From: a virus
Taxonomy: Duplodnaviria; Heunggongvirae; Uroviricota; Caudoviricetes
Direction: 5' to 3' (one strand)
IMG/VR virus record: IMGVR_UViG_2579778631_000021
Length of the DNA: 37,649 bases
The position numbers and the translations under genes were made by a program. The notes below the pieces were generated by a model, which was given only the letters and a program-made list of their open reading frames with translations, had not been told where the DNA came from and did no database searches. Below, piece by piece: positions 2,490 through 30,226 of this stretch (position 1 is the first letter of the stretch; the number at the start of each line of letters is the position of its first letter).

Positions 2490-2685
2490 TTCTGATCCTC
2501 TTCAAAAGGCTACCTGTTACTGGTCGATTTAAGTCAACCTTTACCGCTGATTCGTGGAACAGATACTCTCTTCCATCCTTAACCGGAGGAGGGAATATCC
2601 TGCATTCGCGCACCCATCGACGAACTGTTTCAAGGCTTCTTGGGCGCCGCTGGCGTGCGTTCCACTCCTGAAGTGTTAAGTACAT
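2467..2685 (-). CDS. xis: Excisionase Xis
   Basis: 72-aa ORF MYLTLQEWNARQRRPRSLETVRRW... overlapping int start, as in lambda. Confidence 0.9.
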   Translation of the reverse strand: MYLTLQEWNARQRRPRSLETVRRWVRECRIFPPPVKDGREYLFHESAVKVDLNRPVTGSLLKRIRNGKKAKS

Positions 2686-2712
2686 CGCAAAGTCTCCGCA
2701 ATTACACGCAAG

Positions 2713-2732
2713 AAAAAACCGCCATCAGGCGG
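2713..2732 (-). terminator. Hairpin CCGCC-ATCA-GGCGG with T-run on minus strand, between small ORF and xis
   Basis: 5-bp GC stem, 4-nt loop, followed on minus strand by TTTTTTCT; stop codon of upstream ORF lies in the loop. Confidence 0.4.
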
Positions 2733-2892
2733 CTTGGTGTTCTTTCAGTTCTTCAATTCGAATATTGGTTACGTCTGCATGTGCTATCTGCGCCCATATC
2801 ATCCAGTGGTCATAGCAGTCGTTGATGTTCTCTGCTTCGATAACTCTGTTGAATGGCTCTCCATTCCATTCACCTGTCACCCGGAAGTGCAT
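2725..2892 (-). CDS. Small hypothetical protein (55 aa), lambda orf55-like position
   Basis: ATG with GGAG SD 8 nt upstream; translation MHFRVTGEWNGEPFNRVIEAENINDCYDHWMIWAQIAHADVTNIRIEELKEHQAA; below the 60-aa cutoff of the ORF track. Confidence 0.5.
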   Translation of the reverse strand: MHFRVTGEWNGEPFNRVIEAENINDCYDHWMIWAQIAHADVTNIRIEELKEHQAA

Positions 2893-2904
2893 TTATCATC
2901 TCCA

Positions 2905-2929
2905 TAAAACAAAACTCGCCGTAGCGAGT
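2905..2929 (-). terminator. Hairpin ACTCGC-CGTA-GCGAGT followed by TTTTGTTTT on minus strand
   Basis: Perfect 6-bp stem, 4-nt loop, T-rich tract abutting the SD of the 55-aa ORF. Confidence 0.45.
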
Positions 2930-2964
2930 TCAGATAAAAGAAATCCCCGCGAATGCGAGGATTG

Positions 2965-3249
2965 TTATTCATTGCCGATATTCACTTTTATCGCGAACAC
3001 CTTTACCGGTTTATCACCGAAGTGCGGATGTGTGATTGTCTTGATTTCATATCCGTCATACGGGACGTCAATTCTTCGGCTGGAATCGTCGCGCTTCGGA
3101 TATCCCTTCGTGATAATCAGGCGGTCATACTCCCGGAACATAATTCGCTTATTCCAGTAGTCATTACACAGGCGATACTCTTCCGTTTTCTCTCCGCGAA
3201 TCATGGCATCGAAGTATTCACCTTTGACAGCAAGTTGCAGGTTAGCCAT
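2965..3249 (-). CDS. Hypothetical protein, possible ASCH/PUA-like domain
   Basis: Start ATG at 3249 (MANLQLAVKGEYFDAMIRGEKTEEYR) with GGAGG SD; G-x-K-x-x-E-x-R motif reminiscent of ASCH; family assignment is a guess. Confidence 0.4.
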   Translation of the reverse strand: MANLQLAVKGEYFDAMIRGEKTEEYRLCNDYWNKRIMFREYDRLIITKGYPKRDDSSRRIDVPYDGYEIKTITHPHFGDKPVKVFAIKVNIGNE

Positions 3250-3509
3250 TACCGCACCTCCAGTCTCCATACCGCCTGACCAATCCGGCTGGCATAGGTA
3301 TCTTTGGATACTGCTCCGTCTTTAGCCAGCTCCATAAGAATTTTGCGCAAATCTGCCGAACGCCATTCTTCATCAGGAAATTCCTTCTCCATTGCCAACC
3401 GCAGATTCCAGGTTGCTATCGTGAATGGATATTCCCCGCCGAGAGCTTTCTCTTGCAGGGCAGCACGGGAACGCATCACCTGCAAAACCTTCTCTTTTAC
3501 ATCCATCAT
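3249..3509 (-). CDS. Hypothetical phage protein (86 aa)
   Basis: Start MMDVKEKVLQ with GGAGG SD; start overlaps stop of upstream gene (ATGA). Confidence 0.4.
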   Translation of the reverse strand: MMDVKEKVLQVMRSRAALQEKALGGEYPFTIATWNLRLAMEKEFPDEEWRSADLRKILMELAKDGAVSKDTYASRIGQAVWRLEVR

Positions 3510-3895
3510 TTTGCCTCCTGCGGCGGTTCTGGTAGCGGCATCCAGTGTGATGGTATCCACGACGCACCAGGTATTACCCACCCATCATTAGCGTCAGGAT
3601 GCCCCGGGATGTAAGTCGCCCATTTCATTCGCCAGTCACCTTTCCTGTCAAACTCCCTGGCAACAAGAACGGCTGTTTTGGTATCCGGCATTCGCTCACT
3701 ACAGCTTATCCAGCCATCCGGAGTTACCGGATAGTTGCCCGACATCTCGTTCAACTTGTAAGTCTGGCTTACAAGTTCGGCTTCCAGCGATGCCAGTGCA
3801 ATCCGTGCCAGTTCCATTTGTTCGCCACGGGTAAGCCCGTTTTCAAGCGGGGATTTAATGAACAATTCGATACGTTCTTTAGTGATAGTGCTCAT
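3506..3895 (-). CDS. DUF551-like phage protein
   Basis: Start MSTITKERIELF with AGGAG SD; C-terminal W-rich segment ending SHWMPLPEPP typical of DUF551. Confidence 0.55.
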   Translation of the reverse strand: MSTITKERIELFIKSPLENGLTRGEQMELARIALASLEAELVSQTYKLNEMSGNYPVTPDGWISCSERMPDTKTAVLVAREFDRKGDWRMKWATYIPGHPDANDGWVIPGASWIPSHWMPLPEPPQEAK

Positions 3896-3896
3896 A

Positions 3897-4451
3897 TCAC
3901 TCTCCTTTGATGCGAATGCCTGCGGCGCGCTCGGCTTCACTTTGTTCCCAAAACCACTTGTGAAGCTCCATAAGCTTTTCGTCAATCGGTGCATATTTGC
4001 GATTAAAGTAGGCCTGAGCATCTTTCTCAGATTCGTCCGGCAATTCGCCAGGGCCAAACAGTGTGTTATAAATCCATGCCAGTCCGCTCTTAGCGTCGCC
4101 AGTTGCCTGCCATTCGATAATGGCAGCCTGCATGACCAGAATGTTTTTCCCGATTAACAGGTCAAGTTCTTTGTACCGGTTGCGGATGTATGCATTCTCG
4201 CTTTGTAATTTTGCGTTGCGCTTCTCTGCTGCTTCCAGCTCAACACGCAGCTTCCCTACCGTTAGCGCAATATCCTCGTTCTCCTGATCGCGGCTTTTGA
4301 TGTATTGCAGGTTTCTTTCCCGTTCATCCAGCATTGCCAGCACAATCGATGGTGTTACCAGCTCATGGAAAAGGTCCGCGTCAAATCCCCAGTCGTCATG
4401 CATTGCCTGCTCTGCCGCCTCACGCAGTGCCTGATGGTCAATTTTGCTCAC
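3897..4451 (-). CDS. Ead/Ea22-like protein
   Basis: 184-aa ORF MSKIDHQALREAAEQA... with central coiled-coil; resembles Ea22-family proteins of lambdoid b2-region; recalled similarity only. Confidence 0.45.
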   Translation of the reverse strand: MSKIDHQALREAAEQAMHDDWGFDADLFHELVTPSIVLAMLDERERNLQYIKSRDQENEDIALTVGKLRVELEAAEKRNAKLQSENAYIRNRYKELDLLIGKNILVMQAAIIEWQATGDAKSGLAWIYNTLFGPGELPDESEKDAQAYFNRKYAPIDEKLMELHKWFWEQSEAERAAGIRIKGE

Positions 4452-5619: not shown

Positions 5620-6168
5620 TTATTTAGCTAACTTTTTCCAGATCGCTGAAACGTATTTGGCTTGGTGGATGGCATCATCAAGCGCGTTGTGGCGAGTTCC
5701 TTTGAATGGCATATCTCGCTTAGGGTCGAATCCTATTACCTTTCCAAGCTCGACGATTGTTCTTACGTCGCGGTCATTCCACCACTGCCACGGAACTGGC
5801 TGCCCTGTCAGCGAATAACTGTTGCGGAGAATAACGCAGTCAAATGATGCTCCATTCCCCAAAACCTGAACGAATTTGTGGTTAGCGTTCTTTATGATGA
5901 ATTCAGATAACCATGAAAGAGCCGTTGAAAGCTCTTGAGTGTTGCTGGTTAGCGATTTTCTGGCTTCTTCACTCTGTTCCATCCACCATAAAATCGTTGA
6001 AGCGTCAGGACGCGCCCGATATCGCATTGATGACTCAAGCGAGATATTTACCGAGAACTCTTCTCCTGTTTCTCCGGTATTCGGGTCAAAGAATACTGCC
6101 CCAATAGAAATAACTGGCGCGTATGGCCCGTTGCCCATTGTTTCAAGGTCAACCATTAAGTGATTCAT
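5620..6168 (-). CDS. DEDDh-type 3'-5' exonuclease (DnaQ-like fold)
   Basis: N-terminal MVDLETMG (Exo I motif), internal and C-terminal acidic/His motifs (HNALDDA). Confidence 0.7.
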   Translation of the reverse strand: MNHLMVDLETMGNGPYAPVISIGAVFFDPNTGETGEEFSVNISLESSMRYRARPDASTILWWMEQSEEARKSLTSNTQELSTALSWLSEFIIKNANHKFVQVLGNGASFDCVILRNSYSLTGQPVPWQWWNDRDVRTIVELGKVIGFDPKRDMPFKGTRHNALDDAIHQAKYVSAIWKKLAK

Positions 6169-7947: not shown

Positions 7948-8916
7948 TTAGTAGGTTATTTTTGTTGCGAATACTTCGCCTTTTACGATGGCTGTTATGA
8001 TATTTTTAGCAACATCTTCTGATGCACCAACCTTGATAAGGTCAGCAAGTATTTTGTTATTCACTTCTTTCCGGTGAGCTTTATCCTTTGCTCTACGCTC
8101 TTCTTCGTCCTTGATTCTTTTTTCTTCTGCTATTCTGGCTTGCTCTTTTGCTTCAGCCTCGCGACGGATTCGTTCAGCCTCCTCCTGTGCTTTTCTGCGT
8201 TCTGCTTCAATTGCTGCCTGCTTTTCTCTTTCAGCTCGTTCTGCTGCCTCTTTTGCTTCGCGCTGTGCTCGTTGCTCGGCTTCAATGCGTTCACGCTCTG
8301 CACGTTCTGCTGCGGCCTTAGCTTCTGCTTCTCGCCTTGCTGCTGCTTCAATTTCGGCTTTTGCCTTTGCTTCGGCTTCTGCTCTGGCTTTCTCTTCAGC
8401 TTCTCTTTTTAAGCGTTCTTCATGCTCTCGCTTTTCCTGCTCCGCTTTGAGTCTTGCCTCTTCTCTTTGGCGGTCAAATTCGCGATCCATCAAAATAGCT
8501 ATTTCATGGTCAGACTCAATTTGCTTTGCGAGAGCTTCAGCTTCTGCCTTAGCTTCTTCTTCGGCTTTAATCCGCGCCTGTTCTTCCTCATAATCAGTAA
8601 GAGGCTGGCGCGCCTTGGCTTTCAGCTCATCAAGGCGATCGCGCACTGTCTTGCGGTTGGCATCAATTAGCTTTGGAATTTCCTTCAGTTCAGCAACAAG
8701 GTCTTTGCCAAGACCATCGAGATATGTTTTCGTCTGCGCAACTTTATACGCCAGAGAAGCGATCTCCTTTCTGCCCTTTGCCGTTGTGATATCAGGCACA
8801 AAGGACATAACTTCACGTTCAACCTTTTGAAGGATTTCTTCAATCTGGTCGGCAGACTGAAATACAGTCATTGCATTTGCTTTTTCAATAACAACTAAAT
8901 CTGTTACTTCACTCAT
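7948..8916 (-). CDS. Phage protein with long E/A/K/R-rich coiled-coil low-complexity region
   Basis: 322-aa ORF, strong GGAGGA SD; residues about 110-290 are EAKR repeats; function unknown. Confidence 0.5.
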   Translation of the reverse strand: MSEVTDLVVIEKANAMTVFQSADQIEEILQKVEREVMSFVPDITTAKGRKEIASLAYKVAQTKTYLDGLGKDLVAELKEIPKLIDANRKTVRDRLDELKAKARQPLTDYEEEQARIKAEEEAKAEAEALAKQIESDHEIAILMDREFDRQREEARLKAEQEKREHEERLKREAEEKARAEAEAKAKAEIEAAARREAEAKAAAERAERERIEAEQRAQREAKEAAERAEREKQAAIEAERRKAQEEAERIRREAEAKEQARIAEEKRIKDEEERRAKDKAHRKEVNNKILADLIKVGASEDVAKNIITAIVKGEVFATKITY

Positions 8917-12231: not shown

Positions 12232-12876
12232 ATGACATACGAAAATGACAAATTCCAGGTTCTGAAGAGCATGAAGGTGCCAGATGATTTTAAATCAAAT
12301 GGCTTTGTTTATGTGCTTTCGAATGAGTGCATGCCAGGAATTTATAAGATTGGGATGACTAAGCATTCACCAGAAGTTAGGGCTAAAGAAATTTCAGCCT
12401 CTACTGGCGTTCCTAAGCCATTTAAGGTGATAGCAGCCTTTCATTCAAATAATCCCGCATCAGATGAAAAACTCATTCATAAAGCCTTTGCAAAAGAGAG
12501 GCTTAGTGATAATCGAGAGTTTTTCAAGCTTGAAGATAATGATCTTTCTGAATCTCTAAATGAAATAAGGGCGCTGGTTGGCCCTGAAAGAAATGGCGAG
12601 ACGGCAGAATACGCAATTTACGACTCATTCATTTCTTTTCGCCATGAAAATGAGCTTGATCTTAATGAGGAGCTTATAGAGCAAGGTCTGGGTAGTGTAG
12701 TTGGTCATCTTCCTGCGGTGAAAAATTTCCTTATTCGCGCCGGAATTGCTTACGCGAAGCAACTGATAAGCAAATATAACTCATCGATAGTTATTAATAC
12801 AGATGGCAGTGTGGTGATGGTTAAGTCTCTTGAAGCCCAATGCTTTGATGCGGAGGTTGGAAATGAGCCTGGCTGA
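12232..12876 (+). CDS. T5orf172 (MUG113/GIY-YIG-like) domain protein, moron between cII and O
   Basis: N-terminal GFVYVLSNECMPGIYKIGMTKHSPEVRAKEISASTGVPKPFKV matches the T5orf172 signature; CAGGAG SD; AT-rich codon usage. Confidence 0.6.
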   Translation: MTYENDKFQVLKSMKVPDDFKSNGFVYVLSNECMPGIYKIGMTKHSPEVRAKEISASTGVPKPFKVIAAFHSNNPASDEKLIHKAFAKERLSDNREFFKLEDNDLSESLNEIRALVGPERNGETAEYAIYDSFISFRHENELDLNEELIEQGLGSVVGHLPAVKNFLIRAGIAYAKQLISKYNSSIVINTDGSVVMVKSLEAQCFDAEVGNEPG

Positions 12877-13707: not shown

Positions 13708-14553
13708 ATGACGCTGGATGAAAAGATCTTCCAACTGGAGAAAAAACTTGCAGAATTGAGTTCTCCGCCAATTGCTATCGAGCATACAGCTGTAGAAATT
13801 GGCACTGGCATCTGTGAAAAACATGGTGAGTTTGAGCAGCGTAACCGTTACTCGACTGGGCCAATTAAGTTTGCCTCAAGACCTAGCGAATGCCCGGAAT
13901 GCATGAGAGATGAGCTTATTCGGCTACAGGCAGAGAAGATTAAAATCGACGAGGAATCACGTAAGCGCAATGTCGAGTTTCTGTTGAATAATCTTGATAT
14001 TCCTGAACGATTCAAGGGTTGCACACTACAGAACTACGAGCCAGTCAACGACGATGCAAAGAGAGTGCTCAGGGTGTGTCAGGCATACGCCAGCAAATGG
14101 CCTGAGAGGTTACAGAAAGGCGGTGGGCTGGTTATGTGTGGAAAGCCTGGTACTGGAAAGAATCATCTTGCACTGGCTATCGCCTGGCACGCAATTACGG
14201 AACATCAAAGCTCAGCTATTTTCACAACGGCGCTGAAAATTGCCAGAGAATATAAATCAACATGGTCGAAAAACTCCACCCGCACTGAGGATGAAGTGAT
14301 CCGACAGTTCACTAAACCTGACCTGCTAATTATCGATGAGGTTGGTGTGCAGTTTGGAAGCGAGGCGGAAAAGATGATCATGTTCGAAATCATCAACACC
14401 CGCTACGAGCGTATGAAGCCAACAATCCTGATTAGCAACCAGAGCAAAGATGAACTGTCTGCATTCATTGGTGAGCGTGTTATTGACAGGATGAATGATG
14501 GCGGCGGATGCACCCTTGCGTTTACATGGGATAGTTACAGGAGCAGATCGTGA
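13708..14553 (+). CDS. DnaC-like helicase loader (IstB/AAA+ ATPase)
   Basis: Walker A GKPGTGKNHLA, Walker B LLIIDEVG; start overlaps O stop. Confidence 0.8.
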   Translation: MTLDEKIFQLEKKLAELSSPPIAIEHTAVEIGTGICEKHGEFEQRNRYSTGPIKFASRPSECPECMRDELIRLQAEKIKIDEESRKRNVEFLLNNLDIPERFKGCTLQNYEPVNDDAKRVLRVCQAYASKWPERLQKGGGLVMCGKPGTGKNHLALAIAWHAITEHQSSAIFTTALKIAREYKSTWSKNSTRTEDEVIRQFTKPDLLIIDEVGVQFGSEAEKMIMFEIINTRYERMKPTILISNQSKDELSAFIGERVIDRMNDGGGCTLAFTWDSYRSRS

Positions 14554-14865: not shown

Positions 14866-14897
14866 AGGCCTGCTGGTAATCGCAGGCCTTTTTATTT
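14866..14897 (+). terminator. tR2-like rho-independent terminator upstream of ninB
   Basis: 8-bp stem AGGCCTGC/GCAGGCCT, 8-nt loop, followed by TTTTTATTT. Confidence 0.6.
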
Positions 14898-14913
14898 GGG
14901 GGAGAGGGAAGTC

Positions 14914-15354
14914 ATGAAAAAACTAACCTTTGAAATTCGATCTCCAGCACATCAGCAAAACGCTATTCACGCAGTACAGCAAATTCTTCCAGACCCAACC
15001 AAACCAATCGTAGTAACCATTCAGGAACGCAACCGCAGCTTAGACCAAAACCGAAAGCTTTGGGCTTGCCTTGGTGACGTCTCTCGTCAGGTTGAATGGC
15101 ATGGTCGCTGGCTGGATGCAGAAAGTTGGAAGTGTGTGTTTACCGCAGCATTAAAGCAGCAGGACGTTGTTCCTAACCTTGCCGGGAATGGCTTTGTGGT
15201 AATAGGCCAGTCAACCAGCAGGATGCGTGTAAGCGAATTTGCGGAGCTATTAGAGCTTATACAGGCATTCGGTACAGAGCGTGGCGTTAAGTGGTCAGAC
15301 GAAGCGCGACTGGCTCTCGAATGGAAAGCGCGATGGGGAGATCGGGCAGCATGA
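14914..15354 (+). CDS. ninB: NinB recombination protein
   Basis: MKKLTFEIRSPAHQQNAIHAVQQILPDPTKPIVVTIQERNRSLDQNRKLWACLGDV recalled as near-identical to lambda NinB. Confidence 0.85.
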   Translation: MKKLTFEIRSPAHQQNAIHAVQQILPDPTKPIVVTIQERNRSLDQNRKLWACLGDVSRQVEWHGRWLDAESWKCVFTAALKQQDVVPNLAGNGFVVIGQSTSRMRVSEFAELLELIQAFGTERGVKWSDEARLALEWKARWGDRAA

Positions 15355-15878
15355 CTATCAAATCAAATACGCCAGCACACGACAAGGACTGCTGGCAAAC
15401 GCCGCTTTGGCTTTTTGATGCACTGGATATTGAGTTTGGATTCTGGCTGGATTCGGCAGCGAGCGACAAAAATGCTCTGTGTGCTCACTGGCTAACTGAG
15501 GCCGACGACGCGCTCAATTCTGAGTGGGTAAGCCACGGTGCAATCTGGAATAACCCACCGTACAGCAATATCAGGCCGTGGGTGGAAAAAGCCGCTGAGC
15601 AGTGCATACAACAGCGACAGACGGTAGTTATGCTTGTGCCAGAGGATATGTCAGTCGGATGGTTCAGCAAGGCTCTGGAGAGTGTCGACGAAGTTCGCAT
15701 TATCACTGATGGACGGATTAATTTTATCGAACCATCGACAGGGTTGGAGAAGAAGGGAAACAGCAAAGGCTCCATGCTGCTGATTTGGCGACCGTTCATC
15801 AGTCCTCGACGGATGTTTACTACCGTATCCAAAGCGGCATTGATGGCGATCGGGCAGGGCGTCAGGAGGGCGGCATGA
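15351..15878 (+). CDS. Phage Dam-like N6-adenine DNA methyltransferase (orphan)
   Basis: NPPY catalytic motif ([10 protein letters not shown]); start overlaps ninB stop (ATGA); no adjacent restriction gene. Confidence 0.75.
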
Positions 15879-16051
15879 GGCGACAGCGACGAAGTATCAC
15901 CGACATCATCTGCGAAAACTGCAAATACCTTCCAACGAAACGCTCCAGAAATAAACGCAAGCAAATCCCAAAAGAATCTGACGTAAAAACCTTCAACTAC
16001 ACGGCTCACCTGTGGGATATCCGGTGGCTAAGACATCGTGCGAGGAAATGA
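15875..16051 (+). CDS. ninE: NinE-like protein
   Basis: 58 aa [29 protein letters not shown]...; start overlaps methyltransferase stop. Confidence 0.6.
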
Positions 16052-16589: not shown

Positions 16590-16794
16590 TTACCTGAAAT
16601 GGTATCTCTGCCACCGCTGGTTAATTAAGTTTGCTGTAAAAGACTGGATGACAGCGGATGCCAACAAGCTTAAGCAAAGAAAAGACTATTACTACGCCAG
16701 AATGAAGGAAAACTACTGCTCAATTCGCACTCGCATATTTATTAAAAAAGACCTTCAGTCAATTCTTCAATTGCGAGGGAAGGTAAATGGCTAA
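16582..16794 (+). CDS. Hypothetical nin-region protein (70 aa), AT-rich
   Basis: ORF overlapping ninF stop; no recognisable motif. Confidence 0.35.
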   Translation: MSDYLKWYLCHRWLIKFAVKDWMTADANKLKQRKDYYYARMKENYCSIRTRIFIKKDLQSILQLRGKVNG

Positions 16795-17077
16795 CCTACG
16801 CAAAGAAGCGCGCGGCAGAGAATGCCAGGTACGTATTTACGGCGTATGCAATGGCAATCCTGAAACTACAGTTCTGGCACATTACCGGATGGCTGGAATT
16901 TGCGGAACGGGAATGAAACCTGACGACATGATCGGCGCATGGGCTTGTAGCGCGTGTCACGATGAAATCGACCGACGCACCCATAACCTCGACAACAAAG
17001 ACGCCAGACTTTACCACCTCGAAGGCGTGATCAGGACGCAGGCGATACTGCTGAAGGAGGGGAAGATTAAGTCATGA
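16787..17077 (+). CDS. DUF1364 (YbcO-like) zinc-binding putative nuclease
   Basis: CxxC...CxxCH pattern (CQVRIYGVCNGNPETTVLAH...CSACHDEIDRR) typical of YbcO-like proteins upstream of rusA. Confidence 0.65.
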   Translation: MANLRKEARGRECQVRIYGVCNGNPETTVLAHYRMAGICGTGMKPDDMIGAWACSACHDEIDRRTHNLDNKDARLYHLEGVIRTQAILLKEGKIKS

Positions 17078-17436
17078 ACGAATATCAGTTTGTGCTTCCA
17101 TACCCGCCGTCGGTGAACACCTACTGGCGAAGACGGGGAAGCCAATACTACATCAGCGATAAAGGCCAGAAATACCGAAAAGACGTTCAGCAAATCATCC
17201 GCCAACTCAAGTTAGACATTTTCACCAAATCACGACTACGAATCAAAATAATCGCAGACATTCCGGACTCACGTCGCCGCGATCTCGACAACATCCTTAA
17301 ATGCTTGCTCGACTCCCTTATCCACGCCGGATTTGCGGAAGACGACGAGCAATTCGATGACATTCGCGTAATTCGTGGTGTGAAAGTACCAGGCGGAAGG
17401 CTTGGAATAAAAATCACCGAACTGGAGAACGTATGA
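17074..17436 (+). CDS. rusA: RusA Holliday junction resolvase
   Basis: 120 aa; MNEYQFVLPYPPSVNTYWRRRG... and acidic catalytic residues (DLDN) typical of RusA. Confidence 0.85.
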   Translation: MNEYQFVLPYPPSVNTYWRRRGSQYYISDKGQKYRKDVQQIIRQLKLDIFTKSRLRIKIIADIPDSRRRDLDNILKCLLDSLIHAGFAEDDEQFDDIRVIRGVKVPGGRLGIKITELENV

Positions 17437-17621: not shown

Positions 17622-18136
17622 GCATAAGAGAACTAAATCTCACCAAAGAGCAGCACGAGTGGCTGAATGGCTGGCTTGAACTGTGGGGCGCATGGGTTTA
17701 TTCAGGTCGTCTGGAAAAGCGCATGAGCAGCGTAATAGCGAAGTTCATGGAGAGCGTAGAGCCGGGAAGAGTTATGACAAGGCCAATGTGCAATGATGAT
17801 GATGGAATGTTGATTTCTCAGGTCGTCGATTCCGTCATGTACATTGACAAAAAAGCCTTTGGGATCCTCCTCAGCTACTACGCTCATGGTTCATCTAAGC
17901 GAGCAATTGCATCCTACTATCACGCGACTGCAAAGCCACGCAAGATGTGTGGACGTGGTGGCGAGGGATGGAGAAAACCTTCACTGGCAACCTGTAGAAA
18001 CGAAATTGACGACATCCTGAAAGCGTCGTTATTTGTTTTGTACCAACCAATGCAAAATGCTTTCAAAATGCGTAAACGTGTTGAGAAAGTTAAGCATGTT
18101 GCTGTTAAAAGCCTTGACATGCAATTAGCCATTTAG
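17618..18136 (+). CDS. Late-gene antiterminator Q (non-lambda type)
   Basis: 172-aa ORF immediately upstream of pR'-like promoter and lysis genes; Cys/His cluster; differs from recalled lambda Q. Confidence 0.6.
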   Translation: MSIRELNLTKEQHEWLNGWLELWGAWVYSGRLEKRMSSVIAKFMESVEPGRVMTRPMCNDDDGMLISQVVDSVMYIDKKAFGILLSYYAHGSSKRAIASYYHATAKPRKMCGRGGEGWRKPSLATCRNEIDDILKASLFVLYQPMQNAFKMRKRVEKVKHVAVKSLDMQLAI

Positions 18137-18143
18137 CCATAAT
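18114..18143 (+). promoter_or_regulatory. Late promoter pR' candidate
   Basis: -35 TTGACA (18114-18119), about 18-nt spacer, -10 CATAAT (18138-18143), overlapping the Q stop codon. Confidence 0.5.
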
Positions 18144-27628: not shown

Positions 27629-28106
27629 TTTAGTTCTTGCGGCATTACGTAAACTCGGTGTGGCATCAAATGCCACGTTAACCGATGTCGAACCGCAGTC
27701 TATGGAAGACGGCGTCAACGACCTTGAAATGATGATGGCTGAATGGCTTGGCGGTGATGTGTCACCTGGTATCAACGTTGGCTACATTTTCGCTGATGCA
27801 GATGTCTCTCCAGATCCGGGCGATGAGCACGGTTTATCAAATAACGCTATCAATGCTGTCATTTTCAACCTTGCCTGCCGCATTGCACCGGATTATGCGC
27901 TGGAAGCGCCTGCAAAACTTATAACCACTGCCAGATACGGGAAAGAGCGACTCGTCAAACTGTCTGCAATGGACAGAGCAAAAGCCGCTAAATGTAAGTC
28001 CGGTTATCCAAACCGTATGCCTGTTGGTAGCGGTAATCAGTTGGCGAAGTGGAACGGTTGGAATTACTTCCACCGAAAGGAACCTTGCGATAACGGGAGC
28101 GAATAA
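27606..28106 (+). CDS. Head completion/tail accessory protein gp4-like
   Basis: 166 aa [33 protein letters not shown]... resembles P22 gp4. Confidence 0.8.
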
Positions 28107-29525
28107 ATGCCTATTCAGCAACTTCCGCTTATGAAAGGTGTCGGCAAAGACTTCCGAAACGCAGACTATATCGACTATCTGCCAGTGAATATGCTGGCTA
28201 CACCCAAAGAAATCCTGAACAGCAGCGGATATCTTCGCTCATTCCCGGGCATTGCCAAACGTTCCGACGTGAACGGCGTATCGCGGGGCGTCGAGTACAA
28301 CATGGCGCAGAGTGCTGTTTATCGCGTGTGTGGTGGGAAGCTCTACAAAGGCGAAAGCGAAGTCGGTGACGTCGCCGGAAGTGGTCGTGTATCAATGGCG
28401 CATGGTCGGACATCTCAGGCTGTAGGCGTTAATGGTCAACTGGTCGAGTATCGCTATGATGGCACGGTTAAAACCGTCTCAAACTGGCCTACAGACAGCG
28501 GATTCACACAGTATGAGTTAGGCTCAGTCCGCGATATTACGCGCTTGCGTGGGCGTTATGCGTGGTCAAAAGACGGTACTGATTCATGGTTTATCACTGA
28601 CCTTGAAGACGAATCACATCCTGACCGTTACAGCGCACAATATCGTGCCGAGTCTCAGCCTGACGGCATCATCGGCATAGGAACATGGCGAGACTTCATC
28701 GTCTGCTTTGGTTCATCGACGATTGAATATTTCTCCCTGACTGGTGCAACCACCGTTGGTGCCGCTTTGTATGTCGCACAGCCATCGCTGATGGTGCAGA
28801 AAGGTATTGCCGGGACTTACTGCAAAACACCATTCGCTGATTCTTATGCGTTCATCAGCAATCCGGCAACAGGTGCGCCGTCTGTGTATATCATCGGCTC
28901 CGGTCAGGTATCACCAATCGCCAGCGCGAGCATTGAGAAAATCCTTCGTTCCTACACTGCTGATGAACTGGCTGATGGTGTGATGGAATCGCTGCGATTT
29001 GATGCTCATGAGTTGCTGATTATCCATCTTCCGCGCCATGTCCTCGTATACGACGCATATTCAAGCGCCAATGGTCCGCAATGGTGTGTGCTGAAAACAG
29101 GCCTGTATGACGATGTGTACCGCGCTATCGACTTTATTTACGAAGGCAATCAGATAACGTGCGGCGATAAGCTGGAGTCCGTGACCGGGAAATTGCAATT
29201 CGACATCAGCAGCCAGTACGACAAGCAACAGGAACACCTGCTGTTTACTCCACTGTTCAAAGCGGATAACGCCAGAGTTTTCGACCTTGAAGTTGAATCT
29301 TCAACTGGCGTTGCGCAGTATGCTGACCGCCTGTTCCTCTCTGCAACCACTGACGGCATAAATTACGGTCGTGAGCAGATGATTGAGCAGAATGAACCGT
29401 TCGTTTACGACAAACGCGTTTTGTGGAAGCGTGTCGGGCGAATCAGGAAAAATGTCGGCTTCAAACTTCGCGTTATCACGAAGTCACCTGTAACTCTGTC
29501 TGGCGCTCAGATAAGGATTGAGTAA
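28107..29525 (+). CDS. Tail hub/head completion protein gp10-like
   Basis: 472 aa, same length and position as P22 gp10. Confidence 0.85.
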
Positions 29526-30226
29526 TGGCGGATTCATCACTGAATAATCCTGTCGCGGTTCAGGCTACGCGCCTTGATGCTTCAATTTTGCCACGCAATA
29601 TATTCAGCCAGTCTTACCTGCTGTATGTCATTAATCAGGGGGCTGATGTCGGCGCAATTGCCGGGAAGGCAAATCAGGCTGGTCAGGGCGCTTACGATGC
29701 TCAGGTGAAAAACGATGAACAGGATGTCGAACTGGCTGATCACGACGCAAGAATCACCGCAAACACAAAAGCGATAAATCTCCTTGAGGTCAGGTTAACA
29801 ACCGCCGAAGGGAAGATAGTCGTACTGCGTAGCGATGTTGATTACTTGCTGGATGAGGTTATCGATATTCAGGCGCATCTGGTCACTGTTGACCAAAGAC
29901 TGGATGGCGTAGAAAGCGATGTCTCTGGCATTAAGAGTGATTACGTATCGAAAACCGTAACAGAATCGCAGTCTCTTGCGTCACCGCTGGATGTAAAAAC
30001 ATCATATTCAGTTGATGGAATTCAGGTTGTTGGAGCAAGAAATACCGGATGGACTGCAGCCACAGGTACGCCACTTCTTGGCTCATTCAACGCTAACCAG
30101 TCATACACGGTCGGCACTACGTACACACAATCCGAAGTCGCAGCTATCGCTACAGGTTTGGAGCAGGCGCGGCAGCGTATTCTGGCGCTTGAAACAGCAC
30201 TTAGATTACATGGGCTGATTGACTGA
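29525..30226 (+). CDS. Tail needle gp26-like
   Basis: 233 aa [36 protein letters not shown]... with trimeric coiled-coil heptads and conserved C-terminus [17 protein letters not shown]. Confidence 0.9.

Follow-up and report, generated by a model that had tools for sequence, protein, structure and literature searches.

The gene between ninB and ninE in this prophage is an intact phage dam gene whose product is M.EcoVT2Dam, the two proteins being identical in sequence. It is a real gene but an ordinary and extremely common one: annotation of the gene, with its location and likely activity, goes back to the genome records of VT2-Sakai and 933W, and none of the three is new. As for its role, we consider it likely that the product is a GATC N6-adenine methyltransferase, encoded by a delayed-early gene of the pR operon and completing the methylation of phage DNA. 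The window, by which we mean the whole stretch of 37,649 nucleotides analysed, is an integrated prophage of the lambdoid type that, among phage records, comes closest to HZ41, IME10 and N7 and not to an Stx phage.

As read from the sequence, the open reading frame starts with an ATG at 15351-15353 and ends with a TGA at 15876-15878, which gives 175 codons plus the stop (Table 1). The initial annotation had placed a methyltransferase gene between ninB and ninE with overlapping start and stop codons, and this proved exact, with ATGA at both ends and with neighbours that match the NinB and NinE families (PF05772 and PF05322). A program-made ORF list also offers a longer version of dam beginning with a GTG at 15291, but the ATG at 15351 is preferred because many full-length homologues are listed at 175 aa, the VT2-Sakai gene is annotated at 528 bp, and the family profiles begin at residues 2-4. 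Overlaps of 4 nt occur six times in the nin region between 14.5 and 17.7 kb (at 14550, 15351, 15875, 17074, 17433 and 17618), and such ATGA junctions have been described as typical of lambdoid nin regions (PMC8022706). Hence, the overlaps of dam with its neighbours are no special mark of insertion. The ORF list further contains an antisense frame of 174 aa (15485-16009, minus strand) that lies wholly inside dam and ninE, and nothing supports its status as a gene.

Table 1. Features of the dam locus and its immediate surroundings, in window coordinates.
Feature	Position	Strand	Remarks
Intrinsic-terminator-like hairpin and T-run, just 5' of ninB	14866-14899	+	Terminator scan; within a block 95.7% identical to lambda 40553-41084
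ninB (orf-family recombination mediator), upstream neighbour of dam	14914-15354	+	PF05772, 1.1e-54; 95.7% DNA identity to lambda ninB
GGGGAG, Shine-Dalgarno of dam	15335-15340	+	10 nt 5' of the ATG, within the end of ninB; read from the sequence
Left ATGA junction (ninB stop/dam start) and left mosaic boundary	15351-15354	+	ninB TGA at 15352-15354
dam, phage N6-adenine DNA methyltransferase (M.EcoVT2Dam type)	15351-15878, stop included	+	175 aa; PF05869, TIGR01712, PHROG 111, PADLOC oMTase
LDSAAS codons, residues 33-38	15447-15464	+	L33 and D34 invariant; putative AdoMet-binding role
NPPY codons, residues 68-71, catalytic motif IV of amino-methyltransferases	15552-15563	+	Invariant in close and distant homologues
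Right ATGA junction (dam stop/ninE start) and right mosaic boundary	15875-15878	+	ninE ATG at 15875-15877
ninE, downstream neighbour of dam	15875-16051	+	PF05322, 1.5e-42; 97% DNA identity to lambda ninE

The family assignment is clear. In a Pfam scan, the product matches PF05869, "DNA N-6-adenine-methyltransferase (Dam)", at 6.4e-65 and 218 bits, where the cut-off is 28 bits, over profile positions 1-167 of 169. The NCBIfam equivalog TIGR01712, "phage N-6-adenine-methyltransferase", matches at 9.7e-80 and 266 bits (cut-off 97 bits) over the complete profile, positions 1-165 of 165. These two scores place the dam ORF far beyond chance. PHROG 111 "DNA methyltransferase" and the orphan-methyltransferase (oMTase) models of PADLOC match as well, while PF05869 was the sole family matched in the Pfam scan, with no match to MT-A70. 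Among phage records searched by tblastn, dam of VT2-Sakai (AP000422, BAA94133) encodes a protein that is 100% identical over all 175 residues, and only synonymous changes, 6 nucleotides in all, separate the two genes, which indicates purifying selection. Both phages also share the order ninB-dam-ninE and the 4-nt overlaps with both neighbours, whereas they differ in the ninB allele and in the remainder of the phage. The identical Dam is found in Stx2 phage II, Min27 and Phi24B as well, and for Phi24B Dam an identity of 100% to the VT2-Sakai enzyme and of 99% to the HK97 enzyme has been described (Riley et al., PMC3342100).

This identity also bears on the target site. M.EcoVT2Dam is the orphan methyltransferase of prophage VT2-Sa, listed with GATC specificity by Forde et al., and its cloning in 2001 is credited to Radlinska and Bujnicki (PMID 11720311, as cited in PMC6602927 and PMC7556043). 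For the present product, GATC specificity is predicted from its 100% identity to M.EcoVT2Dam, by way of these citations and the REBASE listing. The initial annotation, which had read the gene as a Dam-like N6-adenine methyltransferase, is thus supported both by the profile matches and by the VT2-Sakai enzyme.

Two alignments, one of 33 close homologues and one of distant phage homologues (a T1-like coliphage, Pasteurella phage F108 of HP1/HP2 type and Staphylococcus phage 80), share a set of invariant residues that includes L33-D34, L55, W59, N68-P69-P70-Y71, W104, R122 and F125. The LD motif sits 34 residues upstream of NPPY and may contribute to cofactor binding. Disrupted catalytic motifs had been named at the outset as one observation that would speak against the initial annotation; instead, NPPY and D34 are both intact, and they are conserved in close and distant homologues alike. 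The PF05869 enzymes of T1 type and HP1/F108 type show the same LD...NPPY...W...R order at 33-35% identity, and the GenBank annotation of VT2-Sakai dam already notes similarity to 933W L0094, HP1 Orf13 and T1 M.T1. There are also differences: the T1-like enzyme has an N-terminal extension of ~50 aa, together with an internal insertion, unlike the protein studied here, and conservation of the C-terminal tail (residues 150-175) is limited to the lambdoid versions from enterobacteria.

The product has the Class I (Rossmann-like) AdoMet methyltransferase fold. Its structure model is only of moderate quality (mean pLDDT 76; values under 50 at residues 39-48), and in this model the fold appears closest to the γ-class adenine methyltransferases, such as M.TaqI and CamA. 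Each γ-class match aligns ~128-135 residues, on targets two to five times larger, while the structural scores against E. coli Dam (5.9), T4 Dam (5.2) and DpnM (5.4) come from 95-99 residues only. The short alignments on larger targets, together with the low scores against E. coli Dam, T4 Dam and DpnM, point to a bare catalytic domain that has no separate target-recognition domain and falls outside PF02086. As modelled, then, the 19.7 kDa protein is solely a Rossmann-type catalytic domain with NPPY. E. coli Dam, T4 Dam and DpnM are α-class enzymes of PF02086 that share with it the reported GATC target, the N6-adenine/AdoMet chemistry and the general Rossmann fold; the present product does not show the canonical Dam layout, in which the α-class order is combined with a target-recognition domain. 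The term "Dam-like" used in the initial annotation therefore fits the specificity of the enzyme but not its ancestry, the fold being nearest to the γ-class and outside the E. coli Dam family. Searches by sequence and by profile found no solved structure for the PF05869/TIGR01712 family.

How dam is expressed can be judged from the anatomy of the operon. The hairpin and T-run found just upstream of ninB presumably occupy the position of lambda tR2, and no promoter-like site was found on the plus strand between 12540 and 17774; a strong TTGACA-18-CATAAT site at 18114-18143, which follows Q, represents the late promoter. With a tR2-like terminator upstream and no promoter-like site of its own, dam appears to be a delayed-early gene dependent on antitermination. 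In Phi24B, the dam gene (CM2), which encodes the identical protein, has been assayed by qPCR, and its expression pattern was classed as linked to the lytic cycle (Riley et al., PMC3342100). From this operon anatomy and the published Phi24B qPCR, we infer that dam is a delayed-early lytic gene and not a lysogen regulator.

The initial annotation named altered gene regulation in the lysogen as one typical role of such enzymes. The contrary view along this line is that dam is an epigenetic regulator expressed from the prophage, altering host or prophage expression or the stability of the lysogen. Host Dam has been reported to be necessary for stable 933W lysogeny, the authors of the Phi24B study speculated that phage Dam supplements host Dam, and a lysogen-culture antiserum recognised the Dam protein (PMC3342100). 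The terminator and the promoter scan described above argue against such a role, however, as does the lytic-linked pattern of dam in that same Phi24B paper. Moreover, in lysogens 99.9% of GATC sites are methylated by host Dam in any case (PMC6602927), which would leave little to do for a second enzyme with this specificity. Regulation in the lysogen is thus not favoured, and we regard it as unlikely.

In the preferred reading, that of a lytic GATC methyltransferase, dam would be read from the pR operon only after antitermination through the tR2-like terminator, apparently in translational coupling with ninB and ninE, and Dam would be produced when the phage grows lytically or is induced, but not in a stable lysogen. 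The phage enzyme would then top up GATC methylation of the rapidly replicating phage DNA before packaging, and fully methylated packaged genomes might, on entering the next host, resist GATC restriction enzymes that are sensitive to Dam methylation. A top-up role is proposed because host Dam leaves GATC methylation incomplete in phages that carry no such gene: virion DNA of P22, lambda and L, all without the dam cassette, is under-methylated by host Dam (PMC8022706). Protection of progeny DNA by the dam product is plausible.

One observation counts against this explanation. The window contains 88 GATC sites, compared with 164 ± 12 expected from dinucleotide-preserving shuffles, which is a depletion of about two-fold. 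Independent dinucleotide shuffles agreed with the first count, and an artefact of palindrome counting was ruled out. A maximal-order Markov model gives an observed/expected ratio of 0.46, and among the 4-bp palindromes only CTAG is more depleted than GATC. The longest GATC-free gaps measure 1.9 kb (27813-29738) and 1.8 kb (2494-4286). Under-representation of GATC in E. coli prophages has been reported previously. Carriage of a GATC methyltransferase has thus not relaxed GATC depletion in this prophage, and since the depletion persists despite dam, any selection against GATC is not abolished by methylation alone.

Because the modelled enzyme has no target-recognition domain, one may argue that it is not a strict GATC enzyme and that its specificity is relaxed or different, or that it prefers ssDNA or RNA. 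Other prophage methyltransferases offer precedents, as M.EcoGII is reported to be non-specific and the MT-A70 enzyme M.EcoPA8orf6770P to act on 16S rRNA, but the identical protein M.EcoVT2Dam is listed as GATC-specific. The T1 and HP1 relatives, too, are GATC-specific Dam enzymes, as their GenBank annotation has it. Furthermore, the rRNA-methylating enzyme, which is the only well-documented Stx-phage "Dam homologue" with rRNA as its substrate, belongs to another family. M.EcoGV/M.EcoPA8orf6770P is likewise a prophage orphan "Dam homologue" annotated as GATC-specific, and often occurs in the same Stx phages, but it is an MT-A70 protein with a DPPW motif, lies near the int end, needs the partner PNB-2 and reportedly prefers 16S rRNA (PMC10810198), whereas the product of dam matches PF05869 only, has NPPY and is flanked by ninB and ninE. 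Taken together, a departure from strict GATC specificity seems improbable. For the same reasons (MT-A70, DPPW, near int, PNB-2), the Stx-phage "DNA adenine methyltransferase" that was reassigned as a 16S rRNA methyltransferase (PMC10810198) was rejected as an equivalent of this gene. The silent Dam homologue of an ST131 prophage, M.EcoMIV, was also rejected, because it belongs to PF02086.

The boundaries of dam coincide with the ends of shared sequence between lambdoid phages. In local blastn comparisons, the sequence shared with lambda continues through ninB as far as 15354 and picks up again within ninE at 15882; the match to P22 breaks off at 15341 and returns at 15881. Homology to VT2-Sakai extends from 15344 to 16048, covering dam and ninE at 98.7% DNA identity, and does not include this ninB allele. 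Since homology stops and restarts at gene boundaries, dam is a mosaic cassette whose exchange has been precise at the gene ends. The slot between ninB and ninE holds ninC and ninD in lambda, ninD in P22 and dam in this phage. The initial annotation was thus correct about the position of the gene, but "inserted" is better replaced by a description of dam as one among several cassettes that can fill a variable slot. In the preferred reading, dam would be an accessory gene like the rest of the nin region, swapped as a cassette between lambdoid phages. Elsewhere in this region, ybcO (a putative nuclease, PF07102) and rusA (a Holliday-junction resolvase) at 16787-17436 on the plus strand form another alternative cassette of the same mosaic, where the nin regions of lambda and P22 have ninG/rap instead.

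To place the cassette in a wider context, its distribution was assessed in complete genomes and phage records. At a nucleotide identity of at least 95%, the 528-bp dam gene is present in 1566 of 5426 complete E. coli genomes (~29%), at 2193 places, and each of the dam records listed is annotated as a phage N-6-adenine-methyltransferase, flanked by NinB and NinE among the matches listed. The ninE gene alone occurs at 3542 places in 2167 complete E. coli genomes. If dam always adjoins ninE, an adjacency seen among the matches listed, ~60% of ninE-bearing prophage copies would carry dam; by the same counts (2193 dam against 3542 ninE places), the dam form of the slot may be the commoner one in E. 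coli. The ninB-dam-ninE block as a whole matched 427 phage records, which include Sf101, N7, IME10, HK544, mEp332, many Lambda-like isolates and Stx1/Stx2 converting phages. Homologues of dam at 60-80% identity are spread through Enterobacterales, and distant ones, at 30-43% identity, are found in Vibrio, Klebsiella, Lactococcus, Staphylococcus and Gordonia phages. In addition, several database proteins (P0002, P0005, P0011, P0013, P0022 and P0087) have a Dam domain fused to NinE, CII, RusA, NinB or Q domains, and P0002, a Dam-NinE fusion of 233 aa, has 41 member sequences. These fusions are probably frameshifts at ATGA junctions, recombinant prophage remnants or gene-calling artefacts.

It could also be asked whether dam is an inactive remnant carried in a dispensable region, the lambda nin region having been described as consisting of nonessential genes (PMC8022706). 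We consider this very improbable, as the reading frame has its full length, none of the family-invariant residues is missing and the differences from VT2-Sakai are only synonymous; in addition, the identical protein was cloned as a methyltransferase, in the terms in which that work is cited (PMC6602927, PMC7556043).

The surroundings of dam are those of a lambdoid prophage. From the left, the window carries a host pectinesterase-like gene, a lambda-type integrase, an early-left region (Rad52-like recombinase, SSB and exonuclease), sieB, a cI-type repressor and cII; a T5orf172-domain ORF, O, a DnaC-like loader, a ren-like gene, ninB, dam, ninE, ninX, ninF, ybcO, rusA, ninH and Q follow in the middle; and the right part consists of a lysis cassette, a small-terminase-like (GP3_package) gene and then large ORFs (up to 797 aa) to the window end. 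The pectinesterase-like host gene occupies 1-1284 and the integrase, which has an arm-binding domain, 1419-2489, both on the minus strand, so the left prophage-host junction lies near 1285-1420. Within the early-left operon, an Rv2179c-like protein of the 3'-5' exoribonuclease family (5620-6168, minus strand, 1e-71) adjoins SSB and the Rad52-like recombinase. Between that recombinase and sieB lies an ORF of 322 aa (7948-8916, minus strand) that matches PHROGs of unknown function (1376, 21365 and 17211) and had no match in Pfam and PADLOC scans. The T5orf172 ORF, of 214 aa (12232-12876, plus strand), lies between cII and O and has a T5orf172/MUG113 (GIY-YIG-like) domain; it matches the PADLOC candidate defence PDC-S57 (6e-29) and the nuclease part of PD-Lambda-1, and is possibly a prophage-borne defence moron, judging by these matches.

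A scan of the ORFs between 1 and 21.5 kb revealed no restriction endonuclease. The large ORFs to the right of 21.5 kb lie in a part that holds virion genes in the closest phages, and in IME10 the matching stretch up to 25 kb encodes the terminase large subunit and portal. The description of dam as an orphan with no restriction endonuclease nearby therefore held among the ORFs of 1-21.5 kb, where no nuclease partner of a Type II restriction-modification system is encoded, and agrees with the PADLOC oMTase matches. That dam is the methyltransferase half of a restriction-modification system with its nuclease elsewhere in the prophage has a negligible chance of being right: the GIY-YIG-like ORF lies 2.5 kb upstream, but it was rejected as a partner since it matches PDC-S57 single-gene candidate defence models and not restriction enzymes and stands outside the conserved context of the cassette, which occurs in 1566 genomes and in VT2-Sakai amid varied surroundings with only ninB and ninE constant among the matches listed; in addition, PADLOC classes dam as an orphan methyltransferase, and a methylation-sensitive GATC nuclease would be pointless in a Dam-positive host.

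In summary, the dam cassette is of little value as a discovery, since the identical protein was cloned in 2001. What residual value it has lies in the biological role of a cassette carried by more than a quarter of complete E. coli genomes, and in its family, for which the searches found no solved structure although a 4-bp site would be recognised with a bare catalytic domain. There is a slim chance, comparable to that of a relaxed specificity, that the 20-kDa enzyme is not merely a redundant Dam and acts on distinct substrates, such as replication or recombination intermediates, ssDNA or relaxed contexts, maybe together with the coupled NinB mediator. If this were true, its real role would be to evade methylation-sensing defence or mismatch-repair cleavage, and not classical restriction protection.
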